A DNA stretch of 64,000 nucleotides from an archaeon CG10_big_fil_rev_8_21_14_0_10_43_11. GTDB taxonomy: Archaea > Nanobdellota > Nanobdellia > PEZQ01. The stretch lies in assembly GCA_002763265.1 (NCBI GenBank), contig PEZQ01000003.1, forward strand, positions 19,761-83,760. The letters run 5' to 3'. The notes beneath the pieces were generated by a model. That model saw nothing but the letters and a program-made list of their open reading frames with translations. It searched no databases and was not told the DNA's origin. Positions 1 to 53,006 of the stretch are shown one piece after another. Both the position numbers and the translations under genes were made by a program. The first letter of the stretch is position 1, and each line of letters begins with the position of its first letter.

Positions 1-153
1 GAACTGGTGATAGCCGGGAAGCAGGAGTTCTGTTTTGTCAGTTTTTGTTTCCTGCAAGCACACAACATCAGGGTCATGTTTTTGAATTGAAGCGAGAAAA
101 CCTTTTTTGAGTGCTGAGCGAATTCCATTCACATTCCAGGACAGTAATTTCAT
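1..153 (-). CDS. xth: Exodeoxyribonuclease III (AP endonuclease) N-terminal fragment. The gene continues beyond the window start.
   Basis: The reverse-complement translation of 1-153 reads [44 protein letters not shown]. This matches the Xth/ExoIII N-terminus, including the N-x-G and QETK motifs. An ATG lies at about 153-151. Confidence 0.7.
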
Positions 154-5474: not shown

Positions 5475-5531
5475 AGTGATTTGCAGAGTGTTATATGGGG
5501 TGGTCTATTAAAAGGTTTTTGAAAGCCAAGT

Positions 5532-6446
5532 TTACGAGGGTATTCTTGTAATCCACTTTTGGTGTGCATCATTGTTGCCAAGCACCGTTTCAAAATAGCT
5601 TGCTTGCAATTGTTGCGTGATAGGCCCAATGTTTCCACTCCCGATTTGCATGCGATCAACAAAACCAATGCCAGCAACTTCTCCTGCTGTACCCGTAAAG
5701 AATGCTTCATCCGCAATGTAGACCTCGCTTCGTGCAATGGTTCGTTCAAGAACATCAAATCCCTTTTCTTTTGCAAGCGTAACAATCGAGTCCCGGGTTA
5801 TTCCTGCAAGAATTGGTGCAGAAAGCGGGGGTGTGATGATGGTTTGGTCTTTTACCATAAAGAAGTTTTCCGCGCTTCCTTCGCACACGTAACCGTGTTC
5901 GTCAAGCAAAAGTGCTTCATCAAAACCATTAAGCACTGCTTCTTGTTTTGCAAGAATGCTATTTACATAGTTCCCGCCTGCTTTTGCTTTGAGGGGTTGT
6001 GCTGATTGGCTTAGTTTTCGCCATGAACTGACCGTAACGTGTTGCGGTTTTTCAGTATTCAAGTATTTGCCAAGAGGCATGGCAATAATTGCTGTACTCA
6101 CTGGAGACTTAAGAGGGTTGAGTCCAAAAACGCCGTAATCGCGAAAATGGATGGGACGAATGTAAATGCCTGTTTTGAACTTGTTTTCTTGTACAACACG
6201 CACGGATGCAGAAAAGAGGTCATCAAGAGTGTATGGTGTTTTCATGTGATACATTTTTGCTGAATCCTCTAATCGCTTGAGATGCTCTTCTAAACGAAAC
6301 ACAAGAATGTCATCATCTTTGTGATATCCCCTAATCCCTTCAAACACGCTGGTTCCGTAGTGAAGCGCGTGAGCCCACACGTGTACGCGCGCATCATCCC
6401 ATGCAACAAGATTGCCATTAAACCAGAGGTAGTCTGCTTTTTCCAT
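5532..6446 (-). CDS. ilvE: Branched-chain amino acid aminotransferase (fold-type IV PLP enzyme).
   Basis: Full-length similarity to the IlvE pattern (YLWFNGNLV, GTSVFEG, GGNY, EGSAENFF, ITPP). Confidence 0.88.
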   Translation of the reverse strand: MEKADYLWFNGNLVAWDDARVHVWAHALHYGTSVFEGIRGYHKDDDILVFRLEEHLKRLEDSAKMYHMKTPYTLDDLFSASVRVVQENKFKTGIYIRPIHFRDYGVFGLNPLKSPVSTAIIAMPLGKYLNTEKPQHVTVSSWRKLSQSAQPLKAKAGGNYVNSILAKQEAVLNGFDEALLLDEHGYVCEGSAENFFMVKDQTIITPPLSAPILAGITRDSIVTLAKEKGFDVLERTIARSEVYIADEAFFTGTAGEVAGIGFVDRMQIGSGNIGPITQQLQASYFETVLGNNDAHQKWITRIPS

Positions 6447-6573
6447 ATTCGTTTCTTGCTTGGCGTGTTAATAAACATTATCCGGCACAAAAATAACAAA
6501 ACACAGAAGATAAAATAGGAATACTGAAGCATCATAATCATTTTTAATAAGAAATAAAAAGAAATGTAGCATA

Positions 6574-7398
6574 ATGAATCTCATATCAAATCTGACATTT
6601 TCAATTTTTAATGTACTGCAAGAACGGGCATTAGTTTCAGCGCAGGAAAAAAACATAGGAATGCGGCCCGTGCTTAATTACGCGCCAAAGCCCATGCTTG
6701 CAAATTTTGTGAAAACGCCGCTCTTTCATCCTCAAGAAATGATACATAAAAAGTATGGTAAGGATGTTCTCCATCAGGATTGGATGAATTATTTTTCATT
6801 TGGCACGTATGAAAAAATAACCAAGCCACTCACGCGCTTTGACCGCTCAAACCCCTATTATCAGGTGTGGAGTGGGTGTTACATGATAAAAAGCAGGTCA
6901 CAAAAGGCATATGGGTTTGACGGGGACACGCCTGTTTTTGAAGACTTGGTTATGATTCCTGAAGCAGACCAGTCAACATGGATTAATGCGCTTACTGGCA
7001 TCAAACAACCTTTGTTTGATGTGTATAATGTAACAGAATTAAATAAATCACTCCACGAGAAAAGTTTAGCAAATTATTTTTTTAAGATAGACACAAACAG
7101 TGATGTTGTAGTTTCAGAAAACAGCGAATGGTATTGGAGATTATTGCTTTCTGGAAAAAAAACGCAAACACCACATCCAAAAAGAGTAACGCTCAGCACT
7201 ATCATGACTGTTTTTAAAAAAGATAACGTACTTATCATGCCCTATGGCTGCAGTATAGAAGAGCAGTGGGATGCGGTTGGTACTGAGTTAAAAAAAATGA
7301 TGAAAAGCATCAGTCTTGAGGCAGTAGTGGAAAAACCATCACTTCTTCCCTGGAATTATTTAAGCAACGCACTATTACGAAAAAGTGGGGTTGCATAA
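6574..7398 (+). CDS. Hypothetical protein.
   Basis: 274-aa ORF with an ATG start. No family recognised. Confidence 0.4.
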   Translation: MNLISNLTFSIFNVLQERALVSAQEKNIGMRPVLNYAPKPMLANFVKTPLFHPQEMIHKKYGKDVLHQDWMNYFSFGTYEKITKPLTRFDRSNPYYQVWSGCYMIKSRSQKAYGFDGDTPVFEDLVMIPEADQSTWINALTGIKQPLFDVYNVTELNKSLHEKSLANYFFKIDTNSDVVVSENSEWYWRLLLSGKKTQTPHPKRVTLSTIMTVFKKDNVLIMPYGCSIEEQWDAVGTELKKMMKSISLEAVVEKPSLLPWNYLSNALLRKSGVA

Positions 7399-23614: not shown

Positions 23615-23695
23615 ACTGAATGTAGTAACACTCTTCTCATAAAAACCTTTTTGCCCAAAACAATTATTAACGTACAAACGCTCATAAAACAAGTA

Positions 23696-25027
23696 ATGAG
23701 TAGTGACGCGCTTGAATCATACACCATTGAAATAGATAACATTGGCGAAGGCCTTGAATCACACTACTTTAAAATACTCTCACTCATGCGCGTGCAAGGC
23801 TATGACGTGAGCAAAACAAAAGATGTGTATGCTTCATCTGAGATGAGCAGTTTCTGGGGGGACATGGCAAGACGCCGTGGCGAACAAGAATCACGCGCCA
23901 TGCAGCTTATGGGCACGCTCAATGGCATGGTCAAAGACCTTTTTAAGCTTGTGCGAACCGTTACCATTACTGAGGAGCGTTTAAGCTTTTACGACCGCTC
24001 AAAAGAAGGAGATTCAGCAGCAGATTCAGCACTCAAAGATATTTGGGTTACGCTTGTTGAACAAGGAACAAAAAACCCGGCATCAGTATTAGGTCTTGCA
24101 AGCCAAGTGGGGTTTGCGCCATTACCTGACTATTTTTACACTACGCGCGTACAAAACGCAGATGAGGTTGACACCATTGTTGGAAAATATGATATCTCAG
24201 AAAAGCTTGCCTACACGTTAAAGCGAAAACTCTCGCAATTCGTAGCATGGCGGGAGCGTTCAGAAAAAGAATTGCGCGTACGCCTTAAAGTTACAAAAAA
24301 CATGCTTCGAACCCACATCTCACAACTGCGTCTCTACGCAGAATGGTTAAAGCCCTATCTTCGCGCTATAAGCAAACTTCGAGACATTCAAGAAGAACGC
24401 CCTGAACTCGTTTCTTCTTTTGAAACCGCGTGGGTTGAACTCTCACTTGACGGCGTGAAAAAAGATGAGAAAAAATTTGGCAAAAACATTGCAGTAATCA
24501 AAGCAAATTTCACGCAACGAACCACACCCGCAGAAGCGTTCCAACAAAACTACCAAAAAGGATTTGTGCACCGCGGACGTGTTGAAATAAAACTCAGCGC
24601 GCACGTGTATACTGAAGACGAGTGGGCTAAAGAAAAAGCAAAAGAAGACGAAGAACTTTTTGACTTTCTTATCAAACACATTAATGAATCGCTTGCTGAC
24701 ATCAAAGATGATTTGATTCACGTTATGAATGATGATTACGAAAAGTTGTATCCAAAAAAGAAAAAAGAAGAGCATAAAACACGAAAAAAGTTTGGAGAAC
24801 AAATCTTAGACTCATTTCTTAATGTGTTCCCTTTTTTTGGGTATTTGAAAAAACCAAAAAATAAGAATGGGCCCTCATTTCACCGCATATTCAAGATGCA
24901 ACAAAAATTTGACGCACAAAAACAACGAGAAAGCGCTGAAACCACCGTTGCGTCAGGATATGAGGATGGCGATTTATGGAAAGTGTATGACTTATTCAAA
25001 CAAAGCCGCGGCTTTGCACGACCATGA
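23696..25027 (+). CDS. Large hypothetical protein, the first gene of the uncharacterised block.
   Basis: About 443 aa from the ATG at 23696 (the track TTG at 23651 would overlap the divergent gene). Charged and helical with a Lys-rich C-terminal tail. Its stop overlaps the next start in an ATGA arrangement. Confidence 0.45.
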   Translation: MSSDALESYTIEIDNIGEGLESHYFKILSLMRVQGYDVSKTKDVYASSEMSSFWGDMARRRGEQESRAMQLMGTLNGMVKDLFKLVRTVTITEERLSFYDRSKEGDSAADSALKDIWVTLVEQGTKNPASVLGLASQVGFAPLPDYFYTTRVQNADEVDTIVGKYDISEKLAYTLKRKLSQFVAWRERSEKELRVRLKVTKNMLRTHISQLRLYAEWLKPYLRAISKLRDIQEERPELVSSFETAWVELSLDGVKKDEKKFGKNIAVIKANFTQRTTPAEAFQQNYQKGFVHRGRVEIKLSAHVYTEDEWAKEKAKEDEELFDFLIKHINESLADIKDDLIHVMNDDYEKLYPKKKKEEHKTRKKFGEQILDSFLNVFPFFGYLKKPKNKNGPSFHRIFKMQQKFDAQKQRESAETTVASGYEDGDLWKVYDLFKQSRGFARP

Positions 25028-27828: not shown

Positions 27829-28620
27829 ATGGAATTCAGACAAGAAGGGTTTGAAACGCCTAATCTCGAATATTACCATGCACAAAATTTAGCTATAGCG
27901 CGAGAATTCGCAAAAAAACTTCACCAAGAGTTTGGAGAATTTCTACAAGTTGCTGTTCTCTTTGGTTCGACAACCAAAGAAACTATGGGCGCCGAAAGTG
28001 ATGTTGACATTCTTACGGTAATTGATGATGTGCGCATGAATCTTAGTCAGGAATTGCTTGACGCGTATCAAATCATCACTGAAAAAATCATTGTCGAAGT
28101 CTCAAACCGCTTGCACGTGCACACCATCGCGCTCACTTCGTTTTGGGAATTCACGCGAAATGGTGACCCGGTCATTATCAACATTCTTCGTGATGGTGTT
28201 GCGCTCATTGACCATGGATTTTTTAACCCAATGCAGCGCATGCTTTTCCAGGGCCGTATCAGACCATCTGGGGAGAGTATTCACAATTATGCGAGTATGG
28301 CGCCAAAAGCTTTGTTTAATGCAAACCTGAAAATGCTGCAAGCCGTGATTGATTTGTACTGGGGTGCAATAGACATTACGCACGCGTACTTAATGAAGCA
28401 GGGAGAAATTCCCCTGAGTCCTGAACATGTGGTTAAGCCCATGAGCAAGTACAAAGCATTCAAAAAAGAGGACCGCGAGCTTGTTGCGTACTTGTACGAG
28501 CTTACTAAAAACATTCTCTACCGCAAAAAAAATGTGATTTCTGGAAAAGAATTTGATATGCTTAAAAAACGAACAGAAGACTACTACGAGCGAATCAAAA
28601 AAGAACTTGGCATTTACTGA
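27829..28620 (+). CDS. Pol-beta-superfamily nucleotidyltransferase domain protein with a C-terminal helical domain (paralog A).
   Basis: NTase signature LFGSTTKETMGAESDVDILTVIDD (GS-x9-D-x-D). The segment FWEFTRNGDPVIINILRDGVALIDHGFF is shared with the paralog at 29888. Confidence 0.6.
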   Translation: MEFRQEGFETPNLEYYHAQNLAIAREFAKKLHQEFGEFLQVAVLFGSTTKETMGAESDVDILTVIDDVRMNLSQELLDAYQIITEKIIVEVSNRLHVHTIALTSFWEFTRNGDPVIINILRDGVALIDHGFFNPMQRMLFQGRIRPSGESIHNYASMAPKALFNANLKMLQAVIDLYWGAIDITHAYLMKQGEIPLSPEHVVKPMSKYKAFKKEDRELVAYLYELTKNILYRKKNVISGKEFDMLKKRTEDYYERIKKELGIY

Positions 28621-29573
28621 GCGTTTTCTTCAGTCCAATTATGCTCCTCTTCATTATAACGTCTTTGAACAAGAGGTTGTGTTTCAACGTGTTCTACGTC
28701 ATTGTGAGGAATCTGCGTTAGTTGAACATTATGTATTGGCTCGTTTTCAACCATGTTATCCTGTGCCACGTTTGTGTCTAGTATTGTATCTGCGTCCTGC
28801 AGGTATTGCGGAAACGCAGTCTCTTCTTGCACCGCTTCCGCTGAAGTCTCAGCTGAATTGTCTAGCATCTCTTCAAGATTAGATTCGTCTGATTCAGGTG
28901 TAACTCGTTGCTCTTGAGCCGGCTCATCTCTGCGTTGATATGGAATGTTGAGAATTTCTTCTTCATTCATATCTTCTGCAAGGAAGCGCTCGTAATCGTT
29001 AACGCCCGCGTTCTTTTTTCCAGTCATCATACGATAAAGTGAGAGAAGTAAATCAATACGAGCTGCAACAAGTTCTGCGTTTTCCATGTTTGCTTCAAGA
29101 CCTTCAGTAACCGAGTAATCCGGAAGAATTTTGAGTTTTGAAAAACTATCCCACCCCTTAACCATAAGTTCATACGCTGAAGTGTTCACTAACTCTTTTG
29201 CTTCGGTCTCTGTTTTTCCAAACACTTTTTGGAAAACTTTCCGGTACGCATTTGCACCTTCTTTAATGATACTTGTATCAAGGGTATTTTGATGTTCTTG
29301 TGATAAGTTGAGACGCCAAATAAGATAGTCTTTCCAGGCATCTTTGCGTTCCCCTTCAAGATACGCATTTGCATAGACGGGCATAGAAACAGCACCAATA
29401 ATATCAAAATTATCTACACCCGCAATAGTAAGCGCACCATAGGGCATCTCATGTTCAGTTGCTACAGGATTGATAAGATTAGGCCGAACGTTTCGCGCTC
29501 GTTGCGGTCTGCGAGCGTCTTCTTGAGCAGCAAGACGTTGCTCAAGGTCTGATTGGGATAGATTCATTGCCAT
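28614..29573 (-). CDS. Hypothetical protein with a highly acidic C-terminal tail.
   Basis: 319 aa starting at ATG, with a Glu/Asp-rich C-terminus. It is convergent with paralog A and overlaps it by 7 bp. Confidence 0.4.
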   Translation of the reverse strand: MAMNLSQSDLEQRLAAQEDARRPQRARNVRPNLINPVATEHEMPYGALTIAGVDNFDIIGAVSMPVYANAYLEGERKDAWKDYLIWRLNLSQEHQNTLDTSIIKEGANAYRKVFQKVFGKTETEAKELVNTSAYELMVKGWDSFSKLKILPDYSVTEGLEANMENAELVAARIDLLLSLYRMMTGKKNAGVNDYERFLAEDMNEEEILNIPYQRRDEPAQEQRVTPESDESNLEEMLDNSAETSAEAVQEETAFPQYLQDADTILDTNVAQDNMVENEPIHNVQLTQIPHNDVEHVETQPLVQRRYNEEEHNWTEENAQ

Positions 29574-29887: not shown

Positions 29888-31021
29888 ATGCCAAAACAAT
29901 CAAAAGCAAAACAACCACAGAAACCAGAAGAACCATCTAAAGAAGATGTTCTTAAAGCTATGCAAGCCCAAAAAGCAGCCCAAGACGCAAACGTGCCAGG
30001 CATGGGAAACCTCTCTGGTGTTGAGCTTTTGCAAAAAATGCACCGCATGCAGGAAGAACTTGGCACAAAACAAGGAATGAAACGCACTGCAGGCGACATT
30101 CTCAAAGAACGTGAACTCAAAATCCTCAACGAGTACTCAGTAAAAGTTGTGCAAAAATTTGGCAGATATATCAAAAGTGTAGTTGCCTTTGGTTCAACAA
30201 AACGAGGCAAAAACTCAGACATTGACGTTGCCGTTATTGTTGATGATACTGATGTTACCCGTATGACGCGCGGACAACTCAAAGACAAACTCTTCCAGCG
30301 CCTTATTGAAGTAGCGTACGTCACTGACAAAAAAATACACCCCCAACCCTACTTGCTTACTGAATTTTGGGAATACATCCGCCATGGAAACCCGGTCATG
30401 TACACGGTGATGCGAACAGGCATCCCCTTATATGACACTGGCTTTTTTCTTCCTGTACAGCTTATTTTTAAACAAGGACTTATCACTCCTTCAAGCGAAG
30501 CAATTGACCGGCACATTCTCATGTCAGTAGAACTGCTTCGCCTCACTGAAGACATGCTTAATCGCAAACTCATTTACAACATGGAACAAAGCATTGTAGC
30601 AGCAGGCCAAGCCGTGCTCATGGAACGCGGGTACCGCCCCCCTGCACCGCGTGAAATTGCTGATTTTCTAGAAAAACTTGTTGGAGAAAAGTTGTTTGCA
30701 CAAAAATATGCCGATATTGCACGAGAAATTGTTGACGTGTACAAACAAACCGAACATGGCACGCTCAAAGAGATTAAGGGCAAAGCAATTGATGATTATC
30801 TTGCAAAAACAACTGATTTTGTGAAGAAAATGGAAGATGTTCTCTCAAAAGAACGAAAAAAGAAAGGCGAAACGTACAAATTTAAGATTGCTGAAGACAA
30901 AGAGAAAGAAGAAAGCAAAAAGGTTAAAAGAGAAGGACTCATAGATGTTGAACGCAAACCAGTAGCAGAAACTGCAGACGAATCACAAAAAATCATTGAA
31001 GAAGGTCTTGCACAACGATGA
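29888..31021 (+). CDS. Pol-beta-superfamily nucleotidyltransferase domain protein with a C-terminal helical domain (paralog B).
   Basis: VVAFGSTKRGKNSDIDVAVIVDD and EFWEYIRHGNPVMYTVMRTGIPLYDTGFF. It has a Lys/Glu-rich C-terminal tail. Its stop overlaps the L35Ae start in an ATGA arrangement. Confidence 0.6.
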   Translation: MPKQSKAKQPQKPEEPSKEDVLKAMQAQKAAQDANVPGMGNLSGVELLQKMHRMQEELGTKQGMKRTAGDILKERELKILNEYSVKVVQKFGRYIKSVVAFGSTKRGKNSDIDVAVIVDDTDVTRMTRGQLKDKLFQRLIEVAYVTDKKIHPQPYLLTEFWEYIRHGNPVMYTVMRTGIPLYDTGFFLPVQLIFKQGLITPSSEAIDRHILMSVELLRLTEDMLNRKLIYNMEQSIVAAGQAVLMERGYRPPAPREIADFLEKLVGEKLFAQKYADIAREIVDVYKQTEHGTLKEIKGKAIDDYLAKTTDFVKKMEDVLSKERKKKGETYKFKIAEDKEKEESKKVKREGLIDVERKPVAETADESQKIIEEGLAQR

Positions 31022-31299: not shown

Positions 31300-31364
31300 T
31301 TATCCTTGCATAGTGGGGTTAGAGTACAAGTATTAATTTAAATTGTTCTCACAACAACTAGAGC

Positions 31365-33374
31365 ATGAACAAGCCCTTGCTCTCGTATAAACGAAAAACA
31401 CTTGCAGACCAGTTATCTGAGTGGGATCAAAAAACGCCTGTTTTGGACCATTTTTTCAAAGAAGGCAAAAATCAGCATTCTAATGAGTCACGAACAGTTC
31501 TTCTGATGAGCCAATACCGTGATGGTGTGATGGTAAGCGCAGATTCAATGACCTCAGCAGGCTTTCGCCAGGCAACTCTTTCGTCTCAAAAGGTCTCATA
31601 CCTTAATCCGCTTGTTATAAGCGCGGGAACAGGCTATGTTTATCCTCTCTACGAGATTGAAGCAATCACCCAACGTGCTTCAGCAAAAGAAATGGCTTTT
31701 CGCCAAATCTCGCTTGGCCTTGACAATCCAAAAAGCATTCCCCGCGTTGAGGAGCTTGCAGAATTCAGTTCCAGCGTATTCAAAAAGCTTGCATACTTTT
31801 ATCCTATGCACCTGGGTGTTCTTCTTATGGGAGGTATGAACGCAGAAAACCAGCCAGCACTTTATTCTTCAGAATCTCCTGGCGCCATGTTTCACTTTAA
31901 TAATGTGTTTGACCGGCATGCAGCAGGGGCGCATGATGCACCCCTTCTCTTTGCTGTTGATGGGTGCGGGTATAATGAGACTGGTAAAGAAATTCGCGAC
32001 CTTACTGAGGATGATACCTCTTTTTTCAAATACAAAACGCGCAACTCGTTTACGCGAGAAAAATCGCTTATTGCACACCTAAAAGCAACTACTGCGTCAT
32101 TTAAGGATAAAGACGGCAGCACTCAGGGTGTTGGCGGAAATGTGTATCTTGCCTACATCCACAACAATAATGGCCGGTTTGAGCCACACTTTGATGTGTT
32201 TGATTACAAAAAAATAACAACATGGAAAGACGAGTTTAACACGCTTGAGCTTCTTATCAAAAAAGATGAAGCAATTGATAATGTGGAGGGCATTGGTGAT
32301 ATTAATGCATTCATTGATTCCTTGCGTGCAGAATATAATGGAACCACACTCCAATACAATGGCGAACACAACCACTTTTCAGCGCCATTTACGCCGTTTT
32401 ACCGCGTTCAGGCGTTCAAGCCTGATACGCACCGATTGAATACAATTTTTGACATTAAAATCCCGCATTCAACTATGAAATTTAGCGTGTCAAAAACAGG
32501 AAGTGATTCATTTGATTCTGCGGCGTTTGGAAATGTATATGGAAAAGCGCTTGGCGCACTCAGACAAGGAGAAACACCCTTTGAACAGTCATCAATGCTC
32601 GCGTTCAAATTCAATTCAACCCCTGACCCGGTTGAACAAAATTCTTTGTTCAAAACACTTCCAAGTGTTGGCCTGTTCCGTCTTGACCCCCCACACCTGC
32701 GCAACTACGAGCACGCTACAATCCTTAACTTTGACTATGGCGAAGTTGGTTTCGGCTCGTTTTATGTGACGGGTATGCACAAACTTCTTTCACGAACCCC
32801 TGAAATCCTTGTTAACCAGCTTTTTATTGATCACGCACTTAGTGACATAACGCGAAACCTCCCTTTGCGCGCAAACATTGAAGAAAACTTTCCTGTGCTT
32901 GAAAGCCATCTTCGATATTACCTTGAATTTGATAGTGCAGACTTTTTGCAAGACAAATCAAGCGCGTATGTAGGCATTATTGGTGAAATACAAAATGACG
33001 CAACCATTAATTTGTGGGAAAGCTCGCCTCTTGGTGTTGGTTTTAGAAAAACCAATGACGCACTTGCAATCATGCCAGAACAAGCGCACGCATCAAAGCT
33101 TGAAGAACTCATGGTAAAACACGTTGTGAATAATGAACAGTCAAACCAGGATGATATTGCCCTTACCAAAGGCCTTGCTTATTTTGTTCAAGCTCACTAT
33201 CATGGACACGCACTGCGCTCATATGACAAGATTTCAAAAGATCTTAACACACGCCTTTCAATTCGGGTTCCCGCATTTAACCGCGCGTCATACAACAGCG
33301 TTGTGCAACAAAAGAAGAAAGAATGGTTTATTGACCGTTCTCTTAAATACCTCAAAAGCGTGACAAAACGATAA
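31365..33374 (+). CDS. Proteasome-beta-like Ntn-hydrolase domain fused to a C-terminal region of about 440 aa with unknown function.
   Basis: Residues from about 44 read T-VLLMSQYRDGVMVSADSMTSAGFRQATLSSQK, placing Thr1, Asp17 and Lys33 exactly as in 20S beta subunits. The segments ISAGTGYV and GVLLMGGMN match the beta-subunit GxxxD and GG motifs. No known domain was recognised in the rest of the protein. Confidence 0.6.
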   Translation: MNKPLLSYKRKTLADQLSEWDQKTPVLDHFFKEGKNQHSNESRTVLLMSQYRDGVMVSADSMTSAGFRQATLSSQKVSYLNPLVISAGTGYVYPLYEIEAITQRASAKEMAFRQISLGLDNPKSIPRVEELAEFSSSVFKKLAYFYPMHLGVLLMGGMNAENQPALYSSESPGAMFHFNNVFDRHAAGAHDAPLLFAVDGCGYNETGKEIRDLTEDDTSFFKYKTRNSFTREKSLIAHLKATTASFKDKDGSTQGVGGNVYLAYIHNNNGRFEPHFDVFDYKKITTWKDEFNTLELLIKKDEAIDNVEGIGDINAFIDSLRAEYNGTTLQYNGEHNHFSAPFTPFYRVQAFKPDTHRLNTIFDIKIPHSTMKFSVSKTGSDSFDSAAFGNVYGKALGALRQGETPFEQSSMLAFKFNSTPDPVEQNSLFKTLPSVGLFRLDPPHLRNYEHATILNFDYGEVGFGSFYVTGMHKLLSRTPEILVNQLFIDHALSDITRNLPLRANIEENFPVLESHLRYYLEFDSADFLQDKSSAYVGIIGEIQNDATINLWESSPLGVGFRKTNDALAIMPEQAHASKLEELMVKHVVNNEQSNQDDIALTKGLAYFVQAHYHGHALRSYDKISKDLNTRLSIRVPAFNRASYNSVVQQKKKEWFIDRSLKYLKSVTKR

Positions 33375-33377
33375 ATC

Positions 33378-35387
33378 ATGGAGCCACAACAGTACAGCGC
33401 AAAGGTGCTCTTGCACCTTCTTGACCTTCAAAAAGATACGTTTGAGCATGCGCAATCATCTCCTCTTAAATCAGCGTACGCGCGCTACCTTTCTGCAGTG
33501 TTTTCTGAAACCAATTCGTTTTACAAATATGTTGCAACAAGCATTGGTGAGAAAACACAAGATCTGCACTACTGGATTCGCATCAAAGACTCGCTTGATT
33601 TTGCTATCACTGCCTTAAGCGTTGCTGAATCAGGTCATGCCGTGCTCAAAGACTTAAGCAGGGATTCGCGTTCATTTAACCGGCTCAAAAACAATATGTC
33701 TCTTGAAGCGCTCAGCGAACGTACCGGCGCATCCTATGCGTCATGGCATGATGTTAAAGAGGATATTGACCGTCTTATTGCGTTTAATTATGGTGTGTGC
33801 GCAAAAACTATTACTGATGTTATTTCATTTTCAGATGACTTGTATGCATCTGTGCAATCACTTGGCTGGGACAGTACTGAAGCACTTGCAAATCTTGAAC
33901 TGCTTGAAAAAATAGAACTGCTCAAACGCAGAATTGCCGGGCAAGGCTCATTTGTTGAGCGAACCAATTTTGACTATTCACGATTATGGTCGCTTGTGTC
34001 AAAAAACAAGATTAACAAGGAAAACGCGCTTGAACTCTTTGATAAAACACTCACTAAATCGTTTAATGCGTTTAAACGAACCTATGAGAAAAAAGAATCC
34101 ATATTCAAAAAAGCCATTGGCGAAGTTGAGTTTATGGAAGAGAAACTCGGACACGTAAGCGTGCTCACAAGCATAATTGAAAATAATACCGGACCAATTA
34201 ACCGGTACAAAAAAACGTTTGAAAAAGTAATACCAAAGCTTGCCCAAACAAAACCGCTCTTTTATGCTCCTGCACTAGACCTTGTTTGGGACATGCTTAA
34301 TCAGACAAAAAATGCACTTTTTGATGTGTATACAAGTAAGAGCCAACGAGAAGACTATGGTCTTTTACCACTCAAGCCCCATGACCCTACCGCGGGTCTT
34401 AATAACGATGAGTGGCTTGCCTTCTGGAAGTTTATTGGACAAAGCACCATTAAAACTGCTGCGCTCTTTTGTGAACATGAACACATGCAGGTAACCGCAA
34501 CGCTTGAAGGTCTGCTTACCATTCCTGACGTTATTATTTCAGAAAAACAAGTCGAGCGCGCAAAGCCCGTTCTTTGCTCGCTTAATTCTGAACTTACCGC
34601 GCTTGCAAACCACCCTTTTTTTACGAGTGACACCTCAGAACTTGATGACATGTTTCTTAGCTCATTTAGTAAGGTGTATGCAATGAGTTACTTGGTCCGC
34701 TGGTTTAAAACAAAAAACGCAGAGAAACTGCCTGAAATTATAGAAGAAATCCAGCGTGAATTTGAAAACTCCCTGCCCGCTAATCCAAAAGAACGGGCAG
34801 AACACGTTTCGCGCGTTATAACTAAAATACATTCGCTTGTTGATTCCGAAAGGTATGGTATTCCTCTTGAAGAATCCCACACCATGCTAAGCGTGCTTGA
34901 TAAGTTTGCCCTTCATGATGGGGATAGCGTGATTGAAGACTTCTACACTGACTTTTATTCAAAATACAACAAATTCATGCAAAAATCAGAAGCATATGCA
35001 AGTGTTGCCCGCAAAGTTCCGACACTCGTTCCTGCGCTCAAAGAATCGCTTGAACAATCATTTGAAGCATTTAATTTTGAAGGCTACTACGAACACGTGA
35101 TTGCAGACTTGCTTCGAATGAAACACGCACTTGAAGAGCACAGCACAAAAATCACGCCAAACACGTATGACAAACGCCAACAAGACCTTATTTCAGGCGA
35201 AGAAACACTCTACTCTGATAACGTTGAAGTGCGCTGCTGGTTTCAGGCACTCTCAGCGCTCAATGATATAACAGAACCATACTCAGACCATGAAATCATG
35301 ATGGAGCTTTCAAGAAAAGCAAAGCACTTGCTTGATAACACCAAAGAAACCTCAAAAGCACTTGACCGACTGCGAACCATGAAATAA
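33378..35387 (+). CDS. Large all-helical hypothetical protein, co-operonic with the Ntn-hydrolase fusion.
   Basis: 669 aa, starting 4 bp after the upstream stop. No nucleotide-binding motifs were seen. Confidence 0.45.
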   Translation: MEPQQYSAKVLLHLLDLQKDTFEHAQSSPLKSAYARYLSAVFSETNSFYKYVATSIGEKTQDLHYWIRIKDSLDFAITALSVAESGHAVLKDLSRDSRSFNRLKNNMSLEALSERTGASYASWHDVKEDIDRLIAFNYGVCAKTITDVISFSDDLYASVQSLGWDSTEALANLELLEKIELLKRRIAGQGSFVERTNFDYSRLWSLVSKNKINKENALELFDKTLTKSFNAFKRTYEKKESIFKKAIGEVEFMEEKLGHVSVLTSIIENNTGPINRYKKTFEKVIPKLAQTKPLFYAPALDLVWDMLNQTKNALFDVYTSKSQREDYGLLPLKPHDPTAGLNNDEWLAFWKFIGQSTIKTAALFCEHEHMQVTATLEGLLTIPDVIISEKQVERAKPVLCSLNSELTALANHPFFTSDTSELDDMFLSSFSKVYAMSYLVRWFKTKNAEKLPEIIEEIQREFENSLPANPKERAEHVSRVITKIHSLVDSERYGIPLEESHTMLSVLDKFALHDGDSVIEDFYTDFYSKYNKFMQKSEAYASVARKVPTLVPALKESLEQSFEAFNFEGYYEHVIADLLRMKHALEEHSTKITPNTYDKRQQDLISGEETLYSDNVEVRCWFQALSALNDITEPYSDHEIMMELSRKAKHLLDNTKETSKALDRLRTMK

Positions 35388-36470: not shown

Positions 36471-36911
36471 TTGCTCCTAGCTTCAATGGAAGTTATGTTT
36501 GTTCCTGAAATCTACGTGTATGGTGAGAAACATGACTGTCAAGAATGCGTTTCACGCGAACACTTTTATCTTAGTTATCTGCGCGCCGAATACCCTGAAG
36601 CCCTCGTTGGCGTGGGTCTTGAAATTCTTGTACACAAAGGAAAACAAGACTATAAACAACTGCGCAAATTTCAAAAAAAACATGCACGCGTTTTTGAAGC
36701 AGCACGCGAAAATGGTTTTGATGTGCTTGCCCTTGGCTTTCCTGAGCTTCCTTTTTTTGACCACCTCAAACGACTTGGAGAGCGCATCCGTGATGCTGCA
36801 CAAGACTATGACCTCTTTGTAGCAATTGTGGGCATGGATGACTATGAATATTTTGAATCCCTCCCTCGTGTTCAAGGATGTTATTATATCCCAATCCACC
36901 TCTTACATTAG
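36471..36911 (+). CDS. Hypothetical protein.
   Basis: 146-aa ORF. No family recognised. Confidence 0.35.
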   Translation: MLLASMEVMFVPEIYVYGEKHDCQECVSREHFYLSYLRAEYPEALVGVGLEILVHKGKQDYKQLRKFQKKHARVFEAARENGFDVLALGFPELPFFDHLKRLGERIRDAAQDYDLFVAIVGMDDYEYFESLPRVQGCYYIPIHLLH

Positions 36912-37910: not shown

Positions 37911-39227
37911 ATGATGCAAAGCAATTTGTCTGATTCATCAGTGGTTCATCAAACAAGCTTTGGTGATGAGCACAGTGTTAAACACGTTTCAGACTACATT
38001 CAAGAAAAGCTTGGAGAATGCGGCTTGTGTCTTGAAGAACTCTGCAACACAAACATACTTGACCAGCCGCTGTCACAAATGCGCGGTTACAAACCAGATT
38101 CAGTAGCGTACTTGCATGCAAAAGATGTTTTTCAAAAACACTTCTCACGAAGCGCGCGTCTTGCCCGTTTTGTTTTTGACTTTGCACACGCGTATCGCAT
38201 TCTTAACAAACAAGACGGGTCCGTAGAAGATTCTGTTGAACAATCACTAGACTACCTGATACACCACCTTCATGTTAACCAGCACGACCTATACCCCGAG
38301 TTTGCACAACCAAAAAAACGAAACCCCCGCGCGTATATGCGTTTTAGAATGAACAAACCCGCTTTTTTTGAAGCGCGATTCAAACAATACGCAACAAAAT
38401 CTCTCAAACCACTTTTTGAACTCTTGCACACCACACGAGAACTGCACGGCGCAGAAAATATGCTTATTACCCAACTTGAAACTGCAAGCAATGGAAACAT
38501 GACCTACCTTACAAAACCTCGCGTGCACGAGTATTTGCGCACGTACCTTTCTAATAACGTAATTACTCACCACGAGATTGACCAACTTTCAGACGTGATT
38601 GACCATTATGCACAACAAAAAATCGCGTTTAATAACCCCTTGCGAAAAACATTCCCGCTCGCTATCAAATTTCTCAAACCATTCGATTTACAACACCTTG
38701 AAACAGCTCTTGAAGGAAGTCCGCTTCTCAAACCATTTGAGCAAGCACTCAGAGCATATGCGCGGAGTGGAGAGCACCTCCAAAACTACGTGCTTAACAA
38801 GGGAAAAGGCACTGCTTCATTTGAATTTGGCTTTAATGATGAGGGCATTGCTCTTTTTCGGATAATGTTACTCTCGCAAGCAGACACACACAACCTGTTT
38901 GAAAACGTGATGCGCTCCCTTTTGAGCGGGGGTCATGGAAACCTGCGCTACATACAAGAAAGCACGGCTTCGTTTCTCGAGCGCTTTCCCGAAGAACCCT
39001 TCCTGCGCGACACGTACCTTGCTGATAAGTATCCGCTCTCACTTGTTATTGATGAAAACTCATTTGCCCTAAACGCGACACTTCCTCTTCTTAGACCGGG
39101 TATTGTTCGCTATGCATTTAAATCACAAAACGAAGAACACATATTCCTGCGTCAACTTGACGCACTCAAGCGCGTCTTGCGTTGCGCACCTCAACCGCTT
39201 GAAAGCTTTGAGAAACTTCCGCTTTAG
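37911..39227 (+). CDS. Hypothetical protein.
   Basis: 438-aa ORF. No family recognised. Confidence 0.4.
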   Translation: MMQSNLSDSSVVHQTSFGDEHSVKHVSDYIQEKLGECGLCLEELCNTNILDQPLSQMRGYKPDSVAYLHAKDVFQKHFSRSARLARFVFDFAHAYRILNKQDGSVEDSVEQSLDYLIHHLHVNQHDLYPEFAQPKKRNPRAYMRFRMNKPAFFEARFKQYATKSLKPLFELLHTTRELHGAENMLITQLETASNGNMTYLTKPRVHEYLRTYLSNNVITHHEIDQLSDVIDHYAQQKIAFNNPLRKTFPLAIKFLKPFDLQHLETALEGSPLLKPFEQALRAYARSGEHLQNYVLNKGKGTASFEFGFNDEGIALFRIMLLSQADTHNLFENVMRSLLSGGHGNLRYIQESTASFLERFPEEPFLRDTYLADKYPLSLVIDENSFALNATLPLLRPGIVRYAFKSQNEEHIFLRQLDALKRVLRCAPQPLESFEKLPL

Positions 39228-40102: not shown

Positions 40103-40819
40103 TTATCCGTACATATTTCTGCTCTCATCGCTTTCATGCTTGACTTCTTTTGCCTTGCCAATCAAGTCCTTTATTTTCTTTTCAAACTCTTCTGCTTCAG
40201 CTACAAGCGGCTTGACATCTACATTCACTTTAAAAAGCGACCCCAATTTTTTGATGAGTGCAACAGCAGCAAGCCCGTCTGGATAGTTTGAATGGCTTTC
40301 AGCCATAAGGCAGAGCGCTTTTATTTTTTTATACTTGCATGCAAGCATGATTGCCGCGCTCACACCAAGAATGTATCCTGTCTTAACTGGTTCAAGACCG
40401 CTTGGCAATTTTGTTTTAATATTCGCATCAATGCCAAATACGCGCGGTTCTTCTGCTATGTTAGGAGAATTAATTCCTTCCAAGCACACGATGCGTGATG
40501 CATTAATCTCTTTTGCCCATTTTACAATTGCTTCTCCAACATCATGAATAAGCGTTGCCGGCACGGGAAACTCTGAACTGATAATGACCCATCCTTTTGA
40601 AGGAACATCATAAATACGGATAGGATTGTACACGTCCCCGTCCTGAATAAAACTTAAGGGGGGTAAATGCGGTGATTCAATGTGACCAATTTGCTTTGCA
40701 TCTAGTTTTTGCGTTAAATACTTTGACGCGATTGAGCCAACAAGACCCACACCGGGAAATCCCTCAATAATAATTGGCGCTTTTGTTTTTGGCTTTTTAG
40801 AAACAATCCTTACCTCCAT
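40103..40819 (-). CDS. PAC2-family protein, an archaeal homolog of proteasome assembly chaperone 2.
   Basis: An N-terminal IIEGFPGVGLVGSIA motif and an overall ATP-grasp-like PAC2 pattern. Confidence 0.65.
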   Translation of the reverse strand: MEVRIVSKKPKTKAPIIIEGFPGVGLVGSIASKYLTQKLDAKQIGHIESPHLPPLSFIQDGDVYNPIRIYDVPSKGWVIISSEFPVPATLIHDVGEAIVKWAKEINASRIVCLEGINSPNIAEEPRVFGIDANIKTKLPSGLEPVKTGYILGVSAAIMLACKYKKIKALCLMAESHSNYPDGLAAVALIKKLGSLFKVNVDVKPLVAEAEEFEKKIKDLIGKAKEVKHESDESRNMYG

Positions 40820-40852: not shown

Positions 40853-42154
40853 TTATCTGTTGTAGAAGCTTCGTAATTTCAAGATGAATATAAGCAGAAA
40901 TAATCCAACAAGACCAACCCCTATAGAAATCTCCATAAGCACACTTTCTTCTGCTCTACTGCGAATGCTCACAAAACGCGTTGCAGACGTTGTTGCAAAG
41001 AGTTGTGACAATCCATAATTGCCAAGAGAAAACTCGTCAATACTTTGATTGAGTAACGCAACCGCGTATGCATACTCCTGTTTCATCTCGCCGCGATTTC
41101 CTAAATACGCGTATTTGAGAATGTTTGCTGCTTTTTCCCGAACGACGTTAGAAGAATTAATCAAACGACCCAGGCTCTTTGTTATGTTTGCTTGCCCCTG
41201 CATTACAATTGAAATAAGTTCTTGGCTTTGGCCTTCATCATATATTACGCGCACGCGCTCGTTTCGTGATGAACTGCCTAAGCTCACATTCAAAAGACGA
41301 ACACTTGCATTAGTTGAAACATTGCCAAACAAGTGTGACGCGCTTCGAAACGTGAGAGTCACATTGTGAAGCGGGATGAGGCACGTATTATTGATGCTAA
41401 AAAAGATGTCTTGACTGCTATCACGGGTTGCAGGCATTTGGTTTGGTCCGTCAATTTCAACACAATCTCCTGAAATAATGATTGGCTCACGCGCGCTATA
41501 GATTTTTCCGCCAAATTCGGTTTCAACACGAATTGTGTACGAACCTGGAAGTATATCTCTAAGCTTGATACTTTTGGTATAATCAACTACGCCGCTCACG
41601 TTTTGTTTGGTATCAGAGTCGCCAAGAATAAACACGTTTGATTCATCGTACAGGCCATAATACACTTCAAAAAATGTTGCACTCTCAAAATTCACCAAGC
41701 GAACATCAATGTCAATGGTAGCATCATCTTCAAACACTGATTTCTCAAGACTAATATTGAGCAGAGCACCCGAACAGTCCGTATCATTTTGCACACACGT
41801 TGCGCCAAACGCACTTGCACACCCGCTGTCAGCTTCGCACCGATACACGCGTCCTTCAAAACAGACGCCTTCAGTAAACGTAAAAACTCGCTTGTCTCCA
41901 CAACACTGACTAATGCTGCTAACATATTCTCCGCACTCGTTGCACGCGCTTGTTGAACTCACTGAAACCCACTCTCCATTGTGGCATACGTATTCAAACC
42001 CGCACGCAAGTGAGGTTGCACTTCTCGTTGATGCATTCACATAGCACACCTCCCCATCAAAACAACTTATTGGGTTATCAGTGCACTCCTCAGCAAATAC
42101 AACACTTGCTGAGGCAAGCACAAAAAACAAACCAAGTATGAATCGCACTCCCAC
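40853..42154 (-). CDS. Cys-rich, N-glycosylated surface protein with a C-terminal TM anchor.
   Basis: A signal peptide, more than 20 Cys in the first 130 aa, many NxS/T sequons and a C-terminal hydrophobic anchor followed by a basic tail. Confidence 0.45.
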   Translation of the reverse strand: MGVRFILGLFFVLASASVVFAEECTDNPISCFDGEVCYVNASTRSATSLACGFEYVCHNGEWVSVSSTSACNECGEYVSSISQCCGDKRVFTFTEGVCFEGRVYRCEADSGCASAFGATCVQNDTDCSGALLNISLEKSVFEDDATIDIDVRLVNFESATFFEVYYGLYDESNVFILGDSDTKQNVSGVVDYTKSIKLRDILPGSYTIRVETEFGGKIYSAREPIIISGDCVEIDGPNQMPATRDSSQDIFFSINNTCLIPLHNVTLTFRSASHLFGNVSTNASVRLLNVSLGSSSRNERVRVIYDEGQSQELISIVMQGQANITKSLGRLINSSNVVREKAANILKYAYLGNRGEMKQEYAYAVALLNQSIDEFSLGNYGLSQLFATTSATRFVSIRSRAEESVLMEISIGVGLVGLFLLIFILKLRSFYNR

Positions 42155-50172: not shown

Positions 50173-50928
50173 TTGATGATTGCACTTGCTCACGCGTTGT
50201 TTGGTGCTGTGTTCGCATTACTGTTTCGTCTCAACCCGTTTATTGTTATTTTGTTTTCGCTCGTGCCAGACGCAGAATTTATCCTGCCAACGTTTCATCG
50301 CGGACCATTACATACCTTGCTCTTTTTGGTTGTGGCAAGTCTTGGCGCGTACGCGTACGATAAGGATGCGGGAAAAGCCGTGTTTGCAGGCATTGCAAGC
50401 CATTTCATGCTTGACTCGCTTACGGTCATGGGCGTGCCGTTACTCTACCCGTTTGTGAACTCGTACTTTAGCCTGCACTTTTTTAACACAAACCAGCTGA
50501 GCATGCTTACTATCATAGTGTGCGTGGTTGTGCTTTTTCACAACAAAAAAGTGTCTCACGCCAAGGCGCCTAAATTATTCTTTGTTCTCCCCTTGCTTGT
50601 GCTTGTGCCTCTTCTTGGAAGCACGCAGCCTATTTTTGAACAATCATGTCCTGCAGAGCTCACGCCGATTAGCGAGGTAACCCTGTACGCAGGAGAACCG
50701 GTTCTTGTTGAAGGAGTGATTTGCTCTGAAATTAAAGACTACACCTCAAATTCGGGGAATGCGTATCAGGATTTTCAACTCTGCAATCAAAGCGAGGTGC
50801 GCGTGTTCAAACAAAAAAACGTACACCAAAACGTGCTTGCACGCGGGGATGCCGTGCGTGTGTGCGGCTATTACACAACTGACTATGGTGGTGAATTGTA
50901 CCACATAAAATTTGTCAAAAAAAATTAG
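50173..50928 (+). CDS. Membrane-bound metal-dependent hydrolase-like protein (YdjM/DUF457-like) with a C-terminal soluble domain.
   Basis: An N-terminal HALFGAV...HRGPLHTLLF...SHFMLDSLTVMGVPLLYPF pattern. Confidence 0.5.
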   Translation: MMIALAHALFGAVFALLFRLNPFIVILFSLVPDAEFILPTFHRGPLHTLLFLVVASLGAYAYDKDAGKAVFAGIASHFMLDSLTVMGVPLLYPFVNSYFSLHFFNTNQLSMLTIIVCVVVLFHNKKVSHAKAPKLFFVLPLLVLVPLLGSTQPIFEQSCPAELTPISEVTLYAGEPVLVEGVICSEIKDYTSNSGNAYQDFQLCNQSEVRVFKQKNVHQNVLARGDAVRVCGYYTTDYGGELYHIKFVKKN

Positions 50929-53006
50929 ATACTGCTCAAAGCGTTTTTAAGTCGCTTGACTTTTTCTTCTTGCGCTTCCTTTTCTTTTTCTAAGCTTTCA
51001 GCTTCATCCTTGTAAATGCGCGCTTTTGTCTCTTCTTTTTTGAGCATAGCATGTATTTCTTTAAGCTCTTTTTTCGTGTTCTCAAGCTCGTCTTTGAGTG
51101 CTGAACGTCGCGCGTTTTCTTCATCAAATGATTTTTTTAGCAACCCATAATCTGTGTGTGCTTTTTCAAGATGCGTTTTTGTCTCATCAAGAAGCGCGTT
51201 AAGTGATGCGTGCGCTTTTTTGCTTGCATTATCTTCTTTTTCTAAACGCGCCTTTGCGGTTTCAAGAGAAATAACCTCTTTGTCAAGCTGTAATTGCTCA
51301 TCGCTAAGCTTTTTGATTTGTTTCTCGTTTTTCACCCGCTCTTTTGCGTATGCTGCAACATTCCTGTTAAGCTCAGTTTTTATTTTTCTAAGACGTTCTA
51401 TATCTTTTCGTGCAAAACCTAACTTCTTTGTCTGATTTGCATTTTCTTTTATAAGCGCAACGCGTTTTGCTGTCTGCTCTTTTTCACGGTCTTTTACGCG
51501 CGCCCTAAACGCGTCAAACTCATCTTTGAGCGCGTTAAGTGCAGTGGTTGTTTGCTTGATTGTTTCTTCTGCTGTTGCTATCTCTTCAACACGCGTTGCA
51601 TATTGTTTTTGTAAGGTTTCATACACTGCTTGCATGTTTGCAAGCTTGGTTGCATGCTCTTCTTTTGTGGCTTTGGCATTTTTGATTTGCTCGTCAAGCT
51701 TTGCTTCAAGCGCCTGCATGTTTGTGCTATGCGCGCGGTGTTGTTTTTCAATAGTGCGTGAAAAAGTTTCGCGCTCTTTTTCTCGCAGTGCACTAAGCGT
51801 ATCAAGGTTCTTTTGAAGCGCGCTTACGGTTTTTTCATGCGCATTCTTTTTTGCGTCAAACTCTTTTTTGCTTGCCGCAAGTTCTCCTGCGAGTTCTTTT
51901 TTCTTTTCTCGCGCGCGCTGCGCCTTTTCCTTCCATGACGCGAGCTGTGAGGTAAGCTGCTTTGTTTGTGATTCTAATGTTTGAGTGAGCGTATCAACTT
52001 GTTCGTGATATGAATCGAGCTCTTGCTTTTGATCTTTGATGAGTTCACGTGCTTCTTTGAGTCCTGCTTCAGCAACACTCTTTTTTTCAATAATTGTAGC
52101 TTTACTCTCTTTAAGTGCTTCAACACGATGCATAAGCGTAGTTACATTCTTTTCAAGTGCTTCACCCTTTTGGGTTTGCGCTTCAAGATTTTCGGTGAGC
52201 TGCGCAATAAGCTCTTCTTTTTTGGTTTTTACTGCATCTAATTGTTTGAGCCGCTCATGCAATGTTTCAATCCGCTCTTTTTCGCGCTCCAGATTCGCTG
52301 CGTTAATCTTGAGTTTTTGTTGTGCATCTTCTTCTTGTTTTGAAACTGTTTTGAGCTTGTCTTGTAGTGTTTGAATGCTGTTTCTTTTTTCTTCACGCAA
52401 TTCAGAAACGCGCATTTCGAGTTTTGCGCGCAAAGCACTAAACTCGTTTTTGATTTTGTGCTCTTCTGATTCAAAGCTTTCTTTTTGCTTTGCTAACTTT
52501 CCTTCAAGCATGCTAATAGCGGCGTTCAATTCTTTTTCCATATGAGCGTGCTCTTTTGCAAGCAACTCGTAACGCTTGATGAGTTCATCTTCTTGCATGC
52601 GCGCAATCTCTGCGTTTAGTTCATGTTCGCGAAGCATAAAATCTTCTTTAGCGTCATGCATCATACGTTTGCTAAGCACTTCTTTTCGCGCGTAAAAGGC
52701 TTCTAACTGGGCAACGTATTGGGTAAGTGATTCTTTGTTTTTTGGTTTAATAATAAAATAATACCAGTCATGACCACATTCAGGACAATGCATCACAACT
52801 TTGAGCGATTCTTTTGTTTCAGGAAGTGCTTTTACGCTACCTACAACTTCTTTATGTTCATACTCATCACACACCGGGCATTCATTGTCATCTCTAATGC
52901 GTTCTTTTAGTTCTTTTTTGAGCTTTGCTCGCTCACGTGTAATCATTCCTTCTAGAGAAGACATCCCCATAGATATATTGTAATGGAAGTTATAATTTTT
53001 AAACAA
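50925..53006 (-). CDS. Long coiled-coil protein with an N-terminal zinc ribbon.
   Basis: N-terminal CPVCDEY...CPECGHDWYY followed by about 600 aa of uninterrupted heptad-rich sequence rich in K, E, L, A and Q. No TM segments or ATPase motifs. Confidence 0.5.
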   Translation of the reverse strand: MFKNYNFHYNISMGMSSLEGMITRERAKLKKELKERIRDDNECPVCDEYEHKEVVGSVKALPETKESLKVVMHCPECGHDWYYFIIKPKNKESLTQYVAQLEAFYARKEVLSKRMMHDAKEDFMLREHELNAEIARMQEDELIKRYELLAKEHAHMEKELNAAISMLEGKLAKQKESFESEEHKIKNEFSALRAKLEMRVSELREEKRNSIQTLQDKLKTVSKQEEDAQQKLKINAANLEREKERIETLHERLKQLDAVKTKKEELIAQLTENLEAQTQKGEALEKNVTTLMHRVEALKESKATIIEKKSVAEAGLKEARELIKDQKQELDSYHEQVDTLTQTLESQTKQLTSQLASWKEKAQRAREKKKELAGELAASKKEFDAKKNAHEKTVSALQKNLDTLSALREKERETFSRTIEKQHRAHSTNMQALEAKLDEQIKNAKATKEEHATKLANMQAVYETLQKQYATRVEEIATAEETIKQTTTALNALKDEFDAFRARVKDREKEQTAKRVALIKENANQTKKLGFARKDIERLRKIKTELNRNVAAYAKERVKNEKQIKKLSDEQLQLDKEVISLETAKARLEKEDNASKKAHASLNALLDETKTHLEKAHTDYGLLKKSFDEENARRSALKDELENTKKELKEIHAMLKKEETKARIYKDEAESLEKEKEAQEEKVKRLKNALSSI

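Follow-up and report, generated by a model that had tools for sequence, protein, structure and literature searches.

A rare archaeal proteasome-like protein with a predicted second proteasome fold and a conserved partner gene

We analysed a 64,000-nucleotide stretch of DNA (the window) from contig PEZQ01000003.1, positions 19,761 to 83,760 of the forward strand, which belongs to the metagenome-assembled genome (MAG) 'archaeon CG10_big_fil_rev_8_21_14_0_10_43_11'. Two open reading frames of 669 amino acids (aa) each, ORF1 (PIO00302.1) and ORF2 (PIO00303.1), stand back to back on the + strand of the window and are both annotated as 'hypothetical proteins'. On balance we favour the view that ORF1 is a new and very rare N-terminal nucleophile (Ntn) hydrolase of the proteasome family (MEROPS T1-like), a single-chain pseudo-heterodimer of an active and an inactive domain, which works with ORF2. 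That ORF1 represents a real new family within the proteasome-like Ntn hydrolases is well supported. Its architecture (propeptide, active domain, linker and inactive domain, plus an obligate partner) is new as far as can be established. The two genes and the parts of ORF1 are as follows.

31365..33374, + strand: ORF1, 669 aa, PIO00302.1, 'hypothetical protein COT72_01190', candidate tandem proteasome-like protein.
31365..31493, + strand: propeptide-like N-terminal extension, residues 1-43, ending in ESR before Thr44; an extension is present in all seven full-length members and is modelled with low confidence.
31494..32264, + strand: catalytic proteasome-beta-like Ntn domain, residues 44-300, assigned from profile matches, alignment and the AlphaFold2 (AF2) model.
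32265..32582, + strand: inter-domain linker, residues 301-406 (about 105 aa), mostly of low confidence in the AF2 model.
32583..33371, + strand: predicted second proteasome-fold (alpha-like) domain, non-catalytic, residues 407-669, assigned from AF2 topology and an alpha-subunit profile match.
33378..35387, + strand: ORF2, 669 aa, PIO00303.1, conserved partner protein.

The family of ORF1 is small. A word-index search with ORF1 found one other homolog, P0002 (650 aa, 50% identity). An exhaustive phmmer search of 1.84 billion protein representatives (E<=1e-3) returned only seven relatives: P0002, five proteins of 671-701 aa with 21-25% identity, in which both halves were matched, and one contig-truncated fragment. 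All are singleton clusters named 'hypothetical protein' at most, and the organism labels found on two of them (a Candidatus Woesearchaeota MAG and a 'Candidatus Parvarchaeota' MAG) are of DPANN type only. Scans of further genome and metagenome contig collections revealed no additional ORF1 members. An earlier note on this DNA, made from its letters alone, had described ORF1 as a fusion, and the fusion proved genuine: it is kept in all seven full-length members (650-701 aa, the window protein included), down to about 17% identity, and the same architecture occurs on seven independent contigs from NCBI, JGI and Logan assemblies. Because these full-length members are independent and deeply diverged, we consider the two-part architecture to be old and conserved and not an assembly artefact.

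The same note had placed an Ntn domain of the proteasome β type at the N-terminus, and this assignment was borne out. The peptide quoted in it is present, and in the window protein Thr44 (codon 31494-31496), Asp60, Lys76 and Gly90 have exactly the 1/17/33/47 spacing of β subunits; some relatives carry an insertion of 4-13 aa in the hairpin of strands S1 and S2. The other key residues are G200-C201-G202 and V256-G257-G258. A 'GxxxD' motif, which had also been claimed, lacks its Asp, the sequence being G90-Y-V-Y-P94. In PDB sequence searches the single ORF1 protein matched β subunits in 37 of 38 cases, and a 2-sequence profile did so in all 29. A 7-sequence N-domain profile gave 84 matches, the best 60 of which were all β subunits (top E=8.7e-5). 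The PDB alignments set [G/R]-Thr44 onto Gly(-1)-Thr1.

Alignment of seven N-domains (18-52% identity to the window protein) identified the invariant columns T44, V45, D60, M62, K76, N81, T89, G90, S106, G118, G157, P193, G200, G202, V256, G257, G258 and K283. These cover the β positions Thr1, Asp17, Lys33, Gly47 and Gly128/Gly130 and the Gly-Gly before S9; T44, D60, K76, G90 and G200/G202 are thus invariant down to 18% identity. The invariance of Thr1, Asp17, Lys33 and Gly47 over such deep divergence argues for selection on catalysis. Curated models were matched with low scores. PF00227 matched ORF1 with E=0.03 (full protein) or 0.004 (isolated domain) and P0002 with E=0.024, the scores of 14.4-17.2 bits being below the gathering threshold of 22.4 bits; three of seven members matched at E<=1. 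TIGR03634 (archaeal β subunit) gave E=9e-4 and 0.035, with 18.9 bits against an equivalog cut-off of 224 bits. Both models were matched independently, below threshold, by several members.

The invariant Thr is preceded by an extension of 35-46 aa in all seven full-length members. In five distant members the junction is the classical G|T; in the window protein and P0002 it is ESR|T, with Arg and not Gly at the last position. Thr44 is invariant (7/7) and starts S1 in the AF2 model. From the sequence we infer cleavage ahead of Thr44. Taken together, the data support an Ntn domain of the proteasome-beta type in the N-terminal region of ORF1, preceded by an extension that resembles a propeptide.

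The remaining 440 or so residues, which had appeared unrecognisable in the earlier note, most likely consist of the linker of about 105 aa and a second proteasome-fold domain. The first line of evidence is a template-free AF2 model of ORF1, built from an 8-sequence alignment (predicted template modelling score 0.71, mean predicted local distance difference test score (pLDDT) 67); an earlier model from a 2-sequence alignment had a pLDDT of 29 and was discarded. In this model the order of strands (S) and helices (H) S1-S2-S3-S4-H1-H2-S5-S6-S7-S8-H3-H4-S9-S10-H5 is present twice, at residues 45-300 and 410-668. For the N-domain the model gives S1-S10 and H1-H4 in the four-layer alpha-beta-beta-alpha arrangement. 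Confidence is highest in the second copy, with mean pLDDT values of 63-93 in 10-residue blocks over residues 541-660. The elements were located as follows.

N-domain, first part: S1 45-51, S2 54-60, S3 77-81, S4 84-88, H1 93-117, H2 128-145.
N-domain, second part: S5-S8 152-200, H3 203-214, H4 231-243, S9 260-268, S10 271-279, H5 281-300.
Second domain, first part: S1' 410-418, S2' 432-440, S3' 451-455, S4' 461-468, H1' 477-491, H2' 505-519.
Second domain, second part: S5'-S8' 535-569, H3' 573-588, H4' 596-611, S9' 631-634, H5' 649-668.

The second line of evidence is a sequence match. The profile of the C-terminal region had one significant match in the PDB, the proteasome alpha subunit 9f9p_D, with E=1.4e-4 for the full C-region profile and 8.9e-5 when only the last 285 residues or so were kept in it (the latter value computed for the whole PDB). 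The alignment spans the family-typical block GG..nG.p.Lw..dP.G...a.aiG and helices H3 and H4. The two lines are independent and agree, because the 9f9p_D alignment lands on S5'-H4' of the template-free model in matching register. A weak hhalign match to a T. acidophilum α sequence was in the same register (E=0.07). Residues 407-669 thus very probably form a second proteasome fold, as judged from the model and the profile match. The second domain contains no Thr/Asp/Lys triad and has no free N-terminus, and would therefore be non-catalytic. A Chp1-like PIN match in P0002 (E=0.001) was seen in one member only and was rejected.

In the linker, residues 335-406 have pLDDT values below 50. It contains a motif at residues 340-359 (32382-32441), APFTPFYRVQAFKPDTHRLN, which is kept in all eight sequences with the pattern G-[GP]-[FY]-N..L.[IV]S.[WFL]K[KN]P[DE]...[IL]N, the final Asn (N359) being invariant. 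The partner may dock on this motif, or the motif may mark a second site of processing. The linker ends in a helix (residues 387-400), which in the AF2 model is placed like the H0 helix of alpha subunits.

Several observations weigh against an active/inactive pair of proteasome folds in ORF1. On the catalytic side, the family has Thr/Ser and Val where Asp166 and Ser169 would be expected, the position of Ser129 is occupied by Cys201 in the window protein (Ser or Cys across the family), position -1 of the window protein is Arg rather than Gly, and every match to curated proteasome models falls below the cut-off of the model. The Arg, the Cys and the loss of Asp166/Ser169 in the window protein would suit a catalytically dead scaffold (pseudo-enzyme). 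The invariant Thr1, Asp17, Lys33 and Gly47 speak against such a protein, just as the seven independent contigs speak against an annotation or assembly artefact, and we regard a dead scaffold or artefact as very improbable.

On the side of the fold, the ORF1 model was built on eight sequences only, with the modest mean pLDDT given above. Compared by hhalign, the N-domain and C-domain profiles show no significant similarity (probability 0.3%), Pfam and NCBIfam have no match in the C region of any of the eight members, and the C-domain profile matches just one of many PDB alpha subunits. A Foldseek search of the PDB gave 1114 matches at E<=1e-3, the best 50 of which were all 20S α or β subunits, but these matches refer to the whole ORF1 model and, the output being without query ranges, do not resolve the aligned half of the query. 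The profile comparison and the Pfam, NCBIfam, PDB and Foldseek results would also suit an over-read AF2 topology and a fortuitous alpha match, in which case ORF1 would consist of one Ntn domain and a novel domain, as in the earlier note. Against this stand the E-value of 9e-5 for the whole PDB, obtained over a block typical of the family (GG..G..Lw..dP.G..aiG), the position of that alignment on S5'-H4' in the right register, and the repetition of the full 15-element order in the second half, where the pLDDT is the highest of the model. We consider a non-proteasome C-terminal region improbable.

If ORF1 is an active/inactive pair, its mode of action can be outlined. The propeptide of about 43 residues would be removed before Thr44, most likely autocatalytically. 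The freed amino group and the hydroxyl of Thr44 would form an active site of the proteasome-beta type with Asp60, Lys76 and the oxyanion hole at Gly90, all of which are present in the sequence. The linker of about 105 residues would lead to the second predicted proteasome fold, which, without catalytic residues, may act as a structural counterpart in the way that an inactive alpha or an inactive beta stands beside an active beta. The reaction would be a Thr-dependent hydrolysis of peptide bonds, or a transpeptidation. ORF1 would act in a stoichiometric complex with the ~670-aa ORF2, for which strict synteny suggests a role in regulation, gating or substrate selection.

The earlier note had also taken the downstream gene for a dedicated partner, and homologs of ORF2 do follow the fusion gene, directly 3' and on the same strand, in all six loci with DNA. 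A right-sized downstream gene is present at two further loci without DNA (JGI contigs). The spacing between the two genes is -4 to +18 nucleotides (nt) across the loci, L003 as called excepted.

Window locus: fusion 669 aa, partner 669 aa, gap of 3 nt.
L001: fusion 650 aa, partner 672 aa, 4-nt overlap.
L004: fusion 690 aa, partner 704 aa, 4-nt overlap.
L005: fusion 675 aa, partner 708 aa, gap of 10 nt.
L003: fusion 671 aa, partner 618 aa as called (about 714 aa if extended), gap of about 300 nt as called and near 0 if extended.
L002: fusion 680 aa, truncated partner, gap of 1 nt.
JGI contig 1 (no DNA): fusion 701 aa, partner at least 624 aa, gap of 18 nt.
JGI contig 2 (no DNA): fusion fragment 427 aa, partner at least 521 aa, gap of 6 nt.

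In L003 the frame is open back to the stop of the fusion gene (L003:10000-10312), and the peptide encoded there is similar to the N-terminal parts of the partners in L004 and L005; for the L003 partner the start was probably mis-called, and the true length would be about 714 aa. ORF2 is 37% identical to the L001 partner (E=8e-157), matches the L005 partner with E=1.4e-11 and is collinear with the L004 partner at both ends. The L003, L004 and L005 partners match each other at E<=1e-55, and the L002 fragment is also homologous to the ORF2 family. The flanking genes vary among the loci and are ordinary archaeal housekeeping genes, and because they differ we regard the fusion and its partner as a conserved unit. 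These observations support the view that ORF2 is a dedicated, conserved and translationally coupled partner.

ORF2 is acidic (isoelectric point 5.7) and poor in Gly+Pro (5.7%), with no transmembrane segment; such a composition would suit a soluble helical protein, and is a weak check, not proof, of the 'all-alpha' label in the earlier note. Searches of Pfam, NCBIfam, the PDB and PADLOC gave no match for the partner family, a word-index homology search with ORF2 returned nothing, also with a 2-sequence profile, and chunk-wise hhalign did not detect internal repeats. A match of ORF2 to COP9 subunit 6 (E=0.014, 50 residues) disappeared with a 5-sequence profile and was rejected as chance, and weak Pfam/PADLOC matches (AbiTi, BrxA, Spectrin_2) were likewise rejected. 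So was the idea that ORF2, in spite of its identical length, is a diverged paralog of ORF1 (hhalign probability 1%).

Two loci carry further genes near the pair. In L004 (4186-5298, +) and L002 (2-994, +) a Cys-rich protein of about 370 aa, with a CxxCGxCCY motif, is encoded directly upstream of the fusion gene on the same strand. It is 45% identical between the two loci, is without a Pfam match and was seen in the P0005/P0007 subclade only; the protein may be a third component specific to that lineage, or its position may reflect the shared synteny of close relatives. The Woesearchaeota locus L003 has, on the opposite strand 1-5 kb upstream of the fusion gene (2482-7059, -), genes for a LonB-type protease and a TldD/PmbA pair; such a proteolysis cluster was not observed at the other loci.

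Single-chain beta-alpha protomers might assemble into a 20S-like self-compartmentalising ring or barrel, with the inactive domain in the place of the outer, alpha-like layer and ORF2 as a helical cap or activator that would correspond in function to Blm10/PA200. In the model both domains have the helices H1/H2 and H3/H4 that mediate contacts within and between rings, a helix stands in the H0 position ahead of the second domain, the only sequence match of the C-domain is an alpha subunit, and propeptides are otherwise known only from beta subunits and HslV (PMC8665760). However, the 105-residue linker and a 670-aa partner at 1:1 may be sterically incompatible with closed rings, insertions of similar size in other homologs were judged likely to block rings (PMC8665760), and no conserved AAA+ unfoldase is found near the pair in the window or in the flanks read at other loci. 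We consider such a ring assembly rather unlikely. With a similarly low probability, ORF1/ORF2 might be a hitherto unseen minimal proteasome-type machine of DPANN archaea, a compartmentalised particle in which one chain provides the 'beta' active and the 'alpha' inactive gating layers and the unrelated, putatively helical 670-aa ORF2 would be the cap or substrate receptor. If true, the labour of alpha and beta would here be divided by way of an independent fusion, and nature would provide a model of how a two-layer proteasome architecture can be built.

Comparison with known systems sets ORF1 apart. The 20S β subunit is a stand-alone protein of about 200 aa that forms heptameric rings with alpha, whereas ORF1 is a 669-aa, two-domain protein in which the β-like domain is fused to a linker and a second domain. 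ORF1 also scores far under the PF00227 and TIGR03634 cut-offs, does not conserve Asp166/Ser169, has Arg at -1 in the window clade, and has the 670-aa partner, not an alpha/beta paralog, as its neighbour. The second domain, as predicted, resembles the 20S α subunit in its fold order, the lack of a catalytic triad, the helix in the H0 position and the sole significant match, 9f9p_D; it differs in not being a separate polypeptide and in having no Pfam/NCBIfam match. HslV, Anbu and BPH are single-domain proteins (about 170-230 aa in the matched PDB chains), which the ORF1 family is not. HslV pairs with HslU, and the Anbu operon consists of ATP-grasp, transglutaminase and Alpha-E genes; no HslU-, ATP-grasp-, transglutaminase- or Alpha-E-type gene is annotated in the flanks read at the window and the other loci. 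In two-chain Ntn hydrolases (penicillin/cephalosporin acylases, acid ceramidase, NAAA) the nucleophile comes after the non-catalytic chain and both chains form one Ntn fold, whereas ORF1 appears to hold two complete folds, the catalytic one first.

The view of the earlier note that known hydrolases of this type are stand-alone domains of 180-300 aa is out of date. It was too strong because in the survey of Fuchs, Alva and Lupas (2021), which described 22 new proteasome homologs, some homologs (connectase, DAH, FC4, RPC, 'DGH') carry extra C-terminal domains: a small β barrel in connectase, a phage-tail-like domain in FC4, and unmatched domains in the others (PMC8665760). These homologs resemble ORF1 in that a divergent prokaryotic Ntn domain is followed by additional C-terminal sequence and in being rare and narrowly distributed. 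They differ in that no extra domain is described as a second proteasome fold, and in that ORF1 has a propeptide-like extension and a strictly conserved partner (PMC8665760). In the survey propeptides belong to β subunits and HslV only, and a conserved genomic context was found for none of the 22 new families (PMC8665760). Its Table 1 gives bacteria or phages alone for DAH, FC4 and RPC, and bacteria alone for HslV, Anbu and BPH, with some organelles added for HslV; WPH, PHI, ACC and some PMI, the archaeal families, do not appear among those with extra C-terminal domains (PMC8665760). From the 22 families (WPH, PHI, ACC, PMI-1..6, DAH, FC1-5, RPC, GPH etc.) ORF1 is set apart by their descriptions only (PMC8665760).

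Connectase deserves separate comment. It lacks H1/H2, has a two-helix insertion between S3 and S4 and is a monomeric ligase of methanogens; the lack of H1/H2 and the insertion are not seen in the ORF1 model. Connectase shows that a proteasome homolog can work as a ligase of high specificity without forming rings (PMC7980362, PMC8665760). By analogy, ORF1 might act on specific sequences as a processing protease or a transpeptidase, in the form of a monomer or heterodimer, with ORF2 as its dedicated substrate or specificity subunit. The strict pairing with one partner and the very narrow phylogenetic distribution fit an enzyme-substrate or enzyme-adaptor pair, and the fused second domain could block ring formation. 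However, the family retains H1/H2, and no helices are inserted between its S3 and S4, contrary to the hallmarks of connectase (PMC8665760); a conserved motif for cleavage or ligation was not recognised in ORF2. We consider a connectase-like enzyme improbable.

Tandem or fused proteasome-like proteins and the ORF1/ORF2 accessions were not mentioned in the searchable literature, which agrees with the earlier statement that the architecture is undescribed. PIO00302 does not occur in one text supplement file of Fuchs et al. 2021, and the terms 'fused', 'fusion' and 'tandem' are absent from a 2026 review of proteasome plasticity. As far as the literature searched shows, the tandem of two proteasome folds, the archaeal fusion of about 670 aa and the conserved partner are new.

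The proteasome family is a model for the evolution of self-compartmentalising proteases, and its known members are single-domain proteins, a few with small or unrelated appendages. ORF1 would add three features that are new in the searched literature: a natural single chain linking an active and an inactive proteasome-fold domain, a propeptide-like extension outside the β and HslV groups, and a strictly conserved partner gene, as against the lack of a conserved context in the 22 families of the 2021 survey (PMC8665760). With two proteins only, the pair lends itself to study of the support that inactive subunits give to active ones, of the need for rings in activity and of the part played by a partner that is not an AAA+ protein, and it adds a DPANN-specific component of proteostasis. 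Should ORF1 be sequence-specific like connectase, it might be of use as a tool.

In the window, ORF1 and ORF2 are separated by 3 nt (TAA-ATC-ATG). The GC content of the region (0.42-0.43) equals that of the neighbouring DNA, so the pair is not an island. Upstream of ORF1 lies the following region.

31300..31364, + strand: intergenic region of 65 nt with a TATA-like A/T-rich element, TATTAATTTAAATT, at 31331-31344, read from the sequence.

The element TATTAATTTAAATT is 21-34 nt ahead of the ORF1 ATG. The region may hold an archaeal promoter, the transcript of which would be leaderless or have a short leader, and the position of the element before the ORF1 start suggests that the pair may have its own promoter. 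Sigma-70 and terminator scans gave background levels, such models not being applicable to archaea.

No canonical psmA/psmB was found in the 64-kb window or in the locus flanks, a weak negative, obtained with T. acidophilum subunit sequences as queries. The upstream neighbours in the window are L35Ae and a minimal nucleotidyltransferase; downstream follow an α/β-hydrolase-like gene, deoxyhypusine synthase and, on the opposite strand, a homolog of PAC2. The PAC2-family (proteasome assembly chaperone-like) gene to which the earlier note had drawn attention is real (40103-40819, minus strand, E=2e-42, 4.7 kb past ORF2). Its association with the pair is not conserved: no PAC2 gene is listed in the 4-10 kb flanks of four other loci with long flanks, and for this reason a functional link was rejected. 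A role in defence was also rejected, PADLOC giving no matches and the neighbours being housekeeping genes.

Some other genes of the window were recorded. Six ORFs of 146-693 aa had no Pfam match: 37911-39227 (+), 23651-25027 (+), 50925-53006 (-), 40853-42154 (-), 28614-29573 (-) and 36471-36911 (+). The one at 37911 (438 aa) comes immediately after deoxyhypusine synthase, in the same orientation. Two genes for minimal nucleotidyltransferases (NTP_transf_2/Polbeta), at 27829-28620 (+) and 29888-31021 (+), lie less than 3 kb apart; the second, just upstream of L35Ae and ORF1, encodes a 377-aa protein with a long Lys/Glu-rich C-terminal tail.

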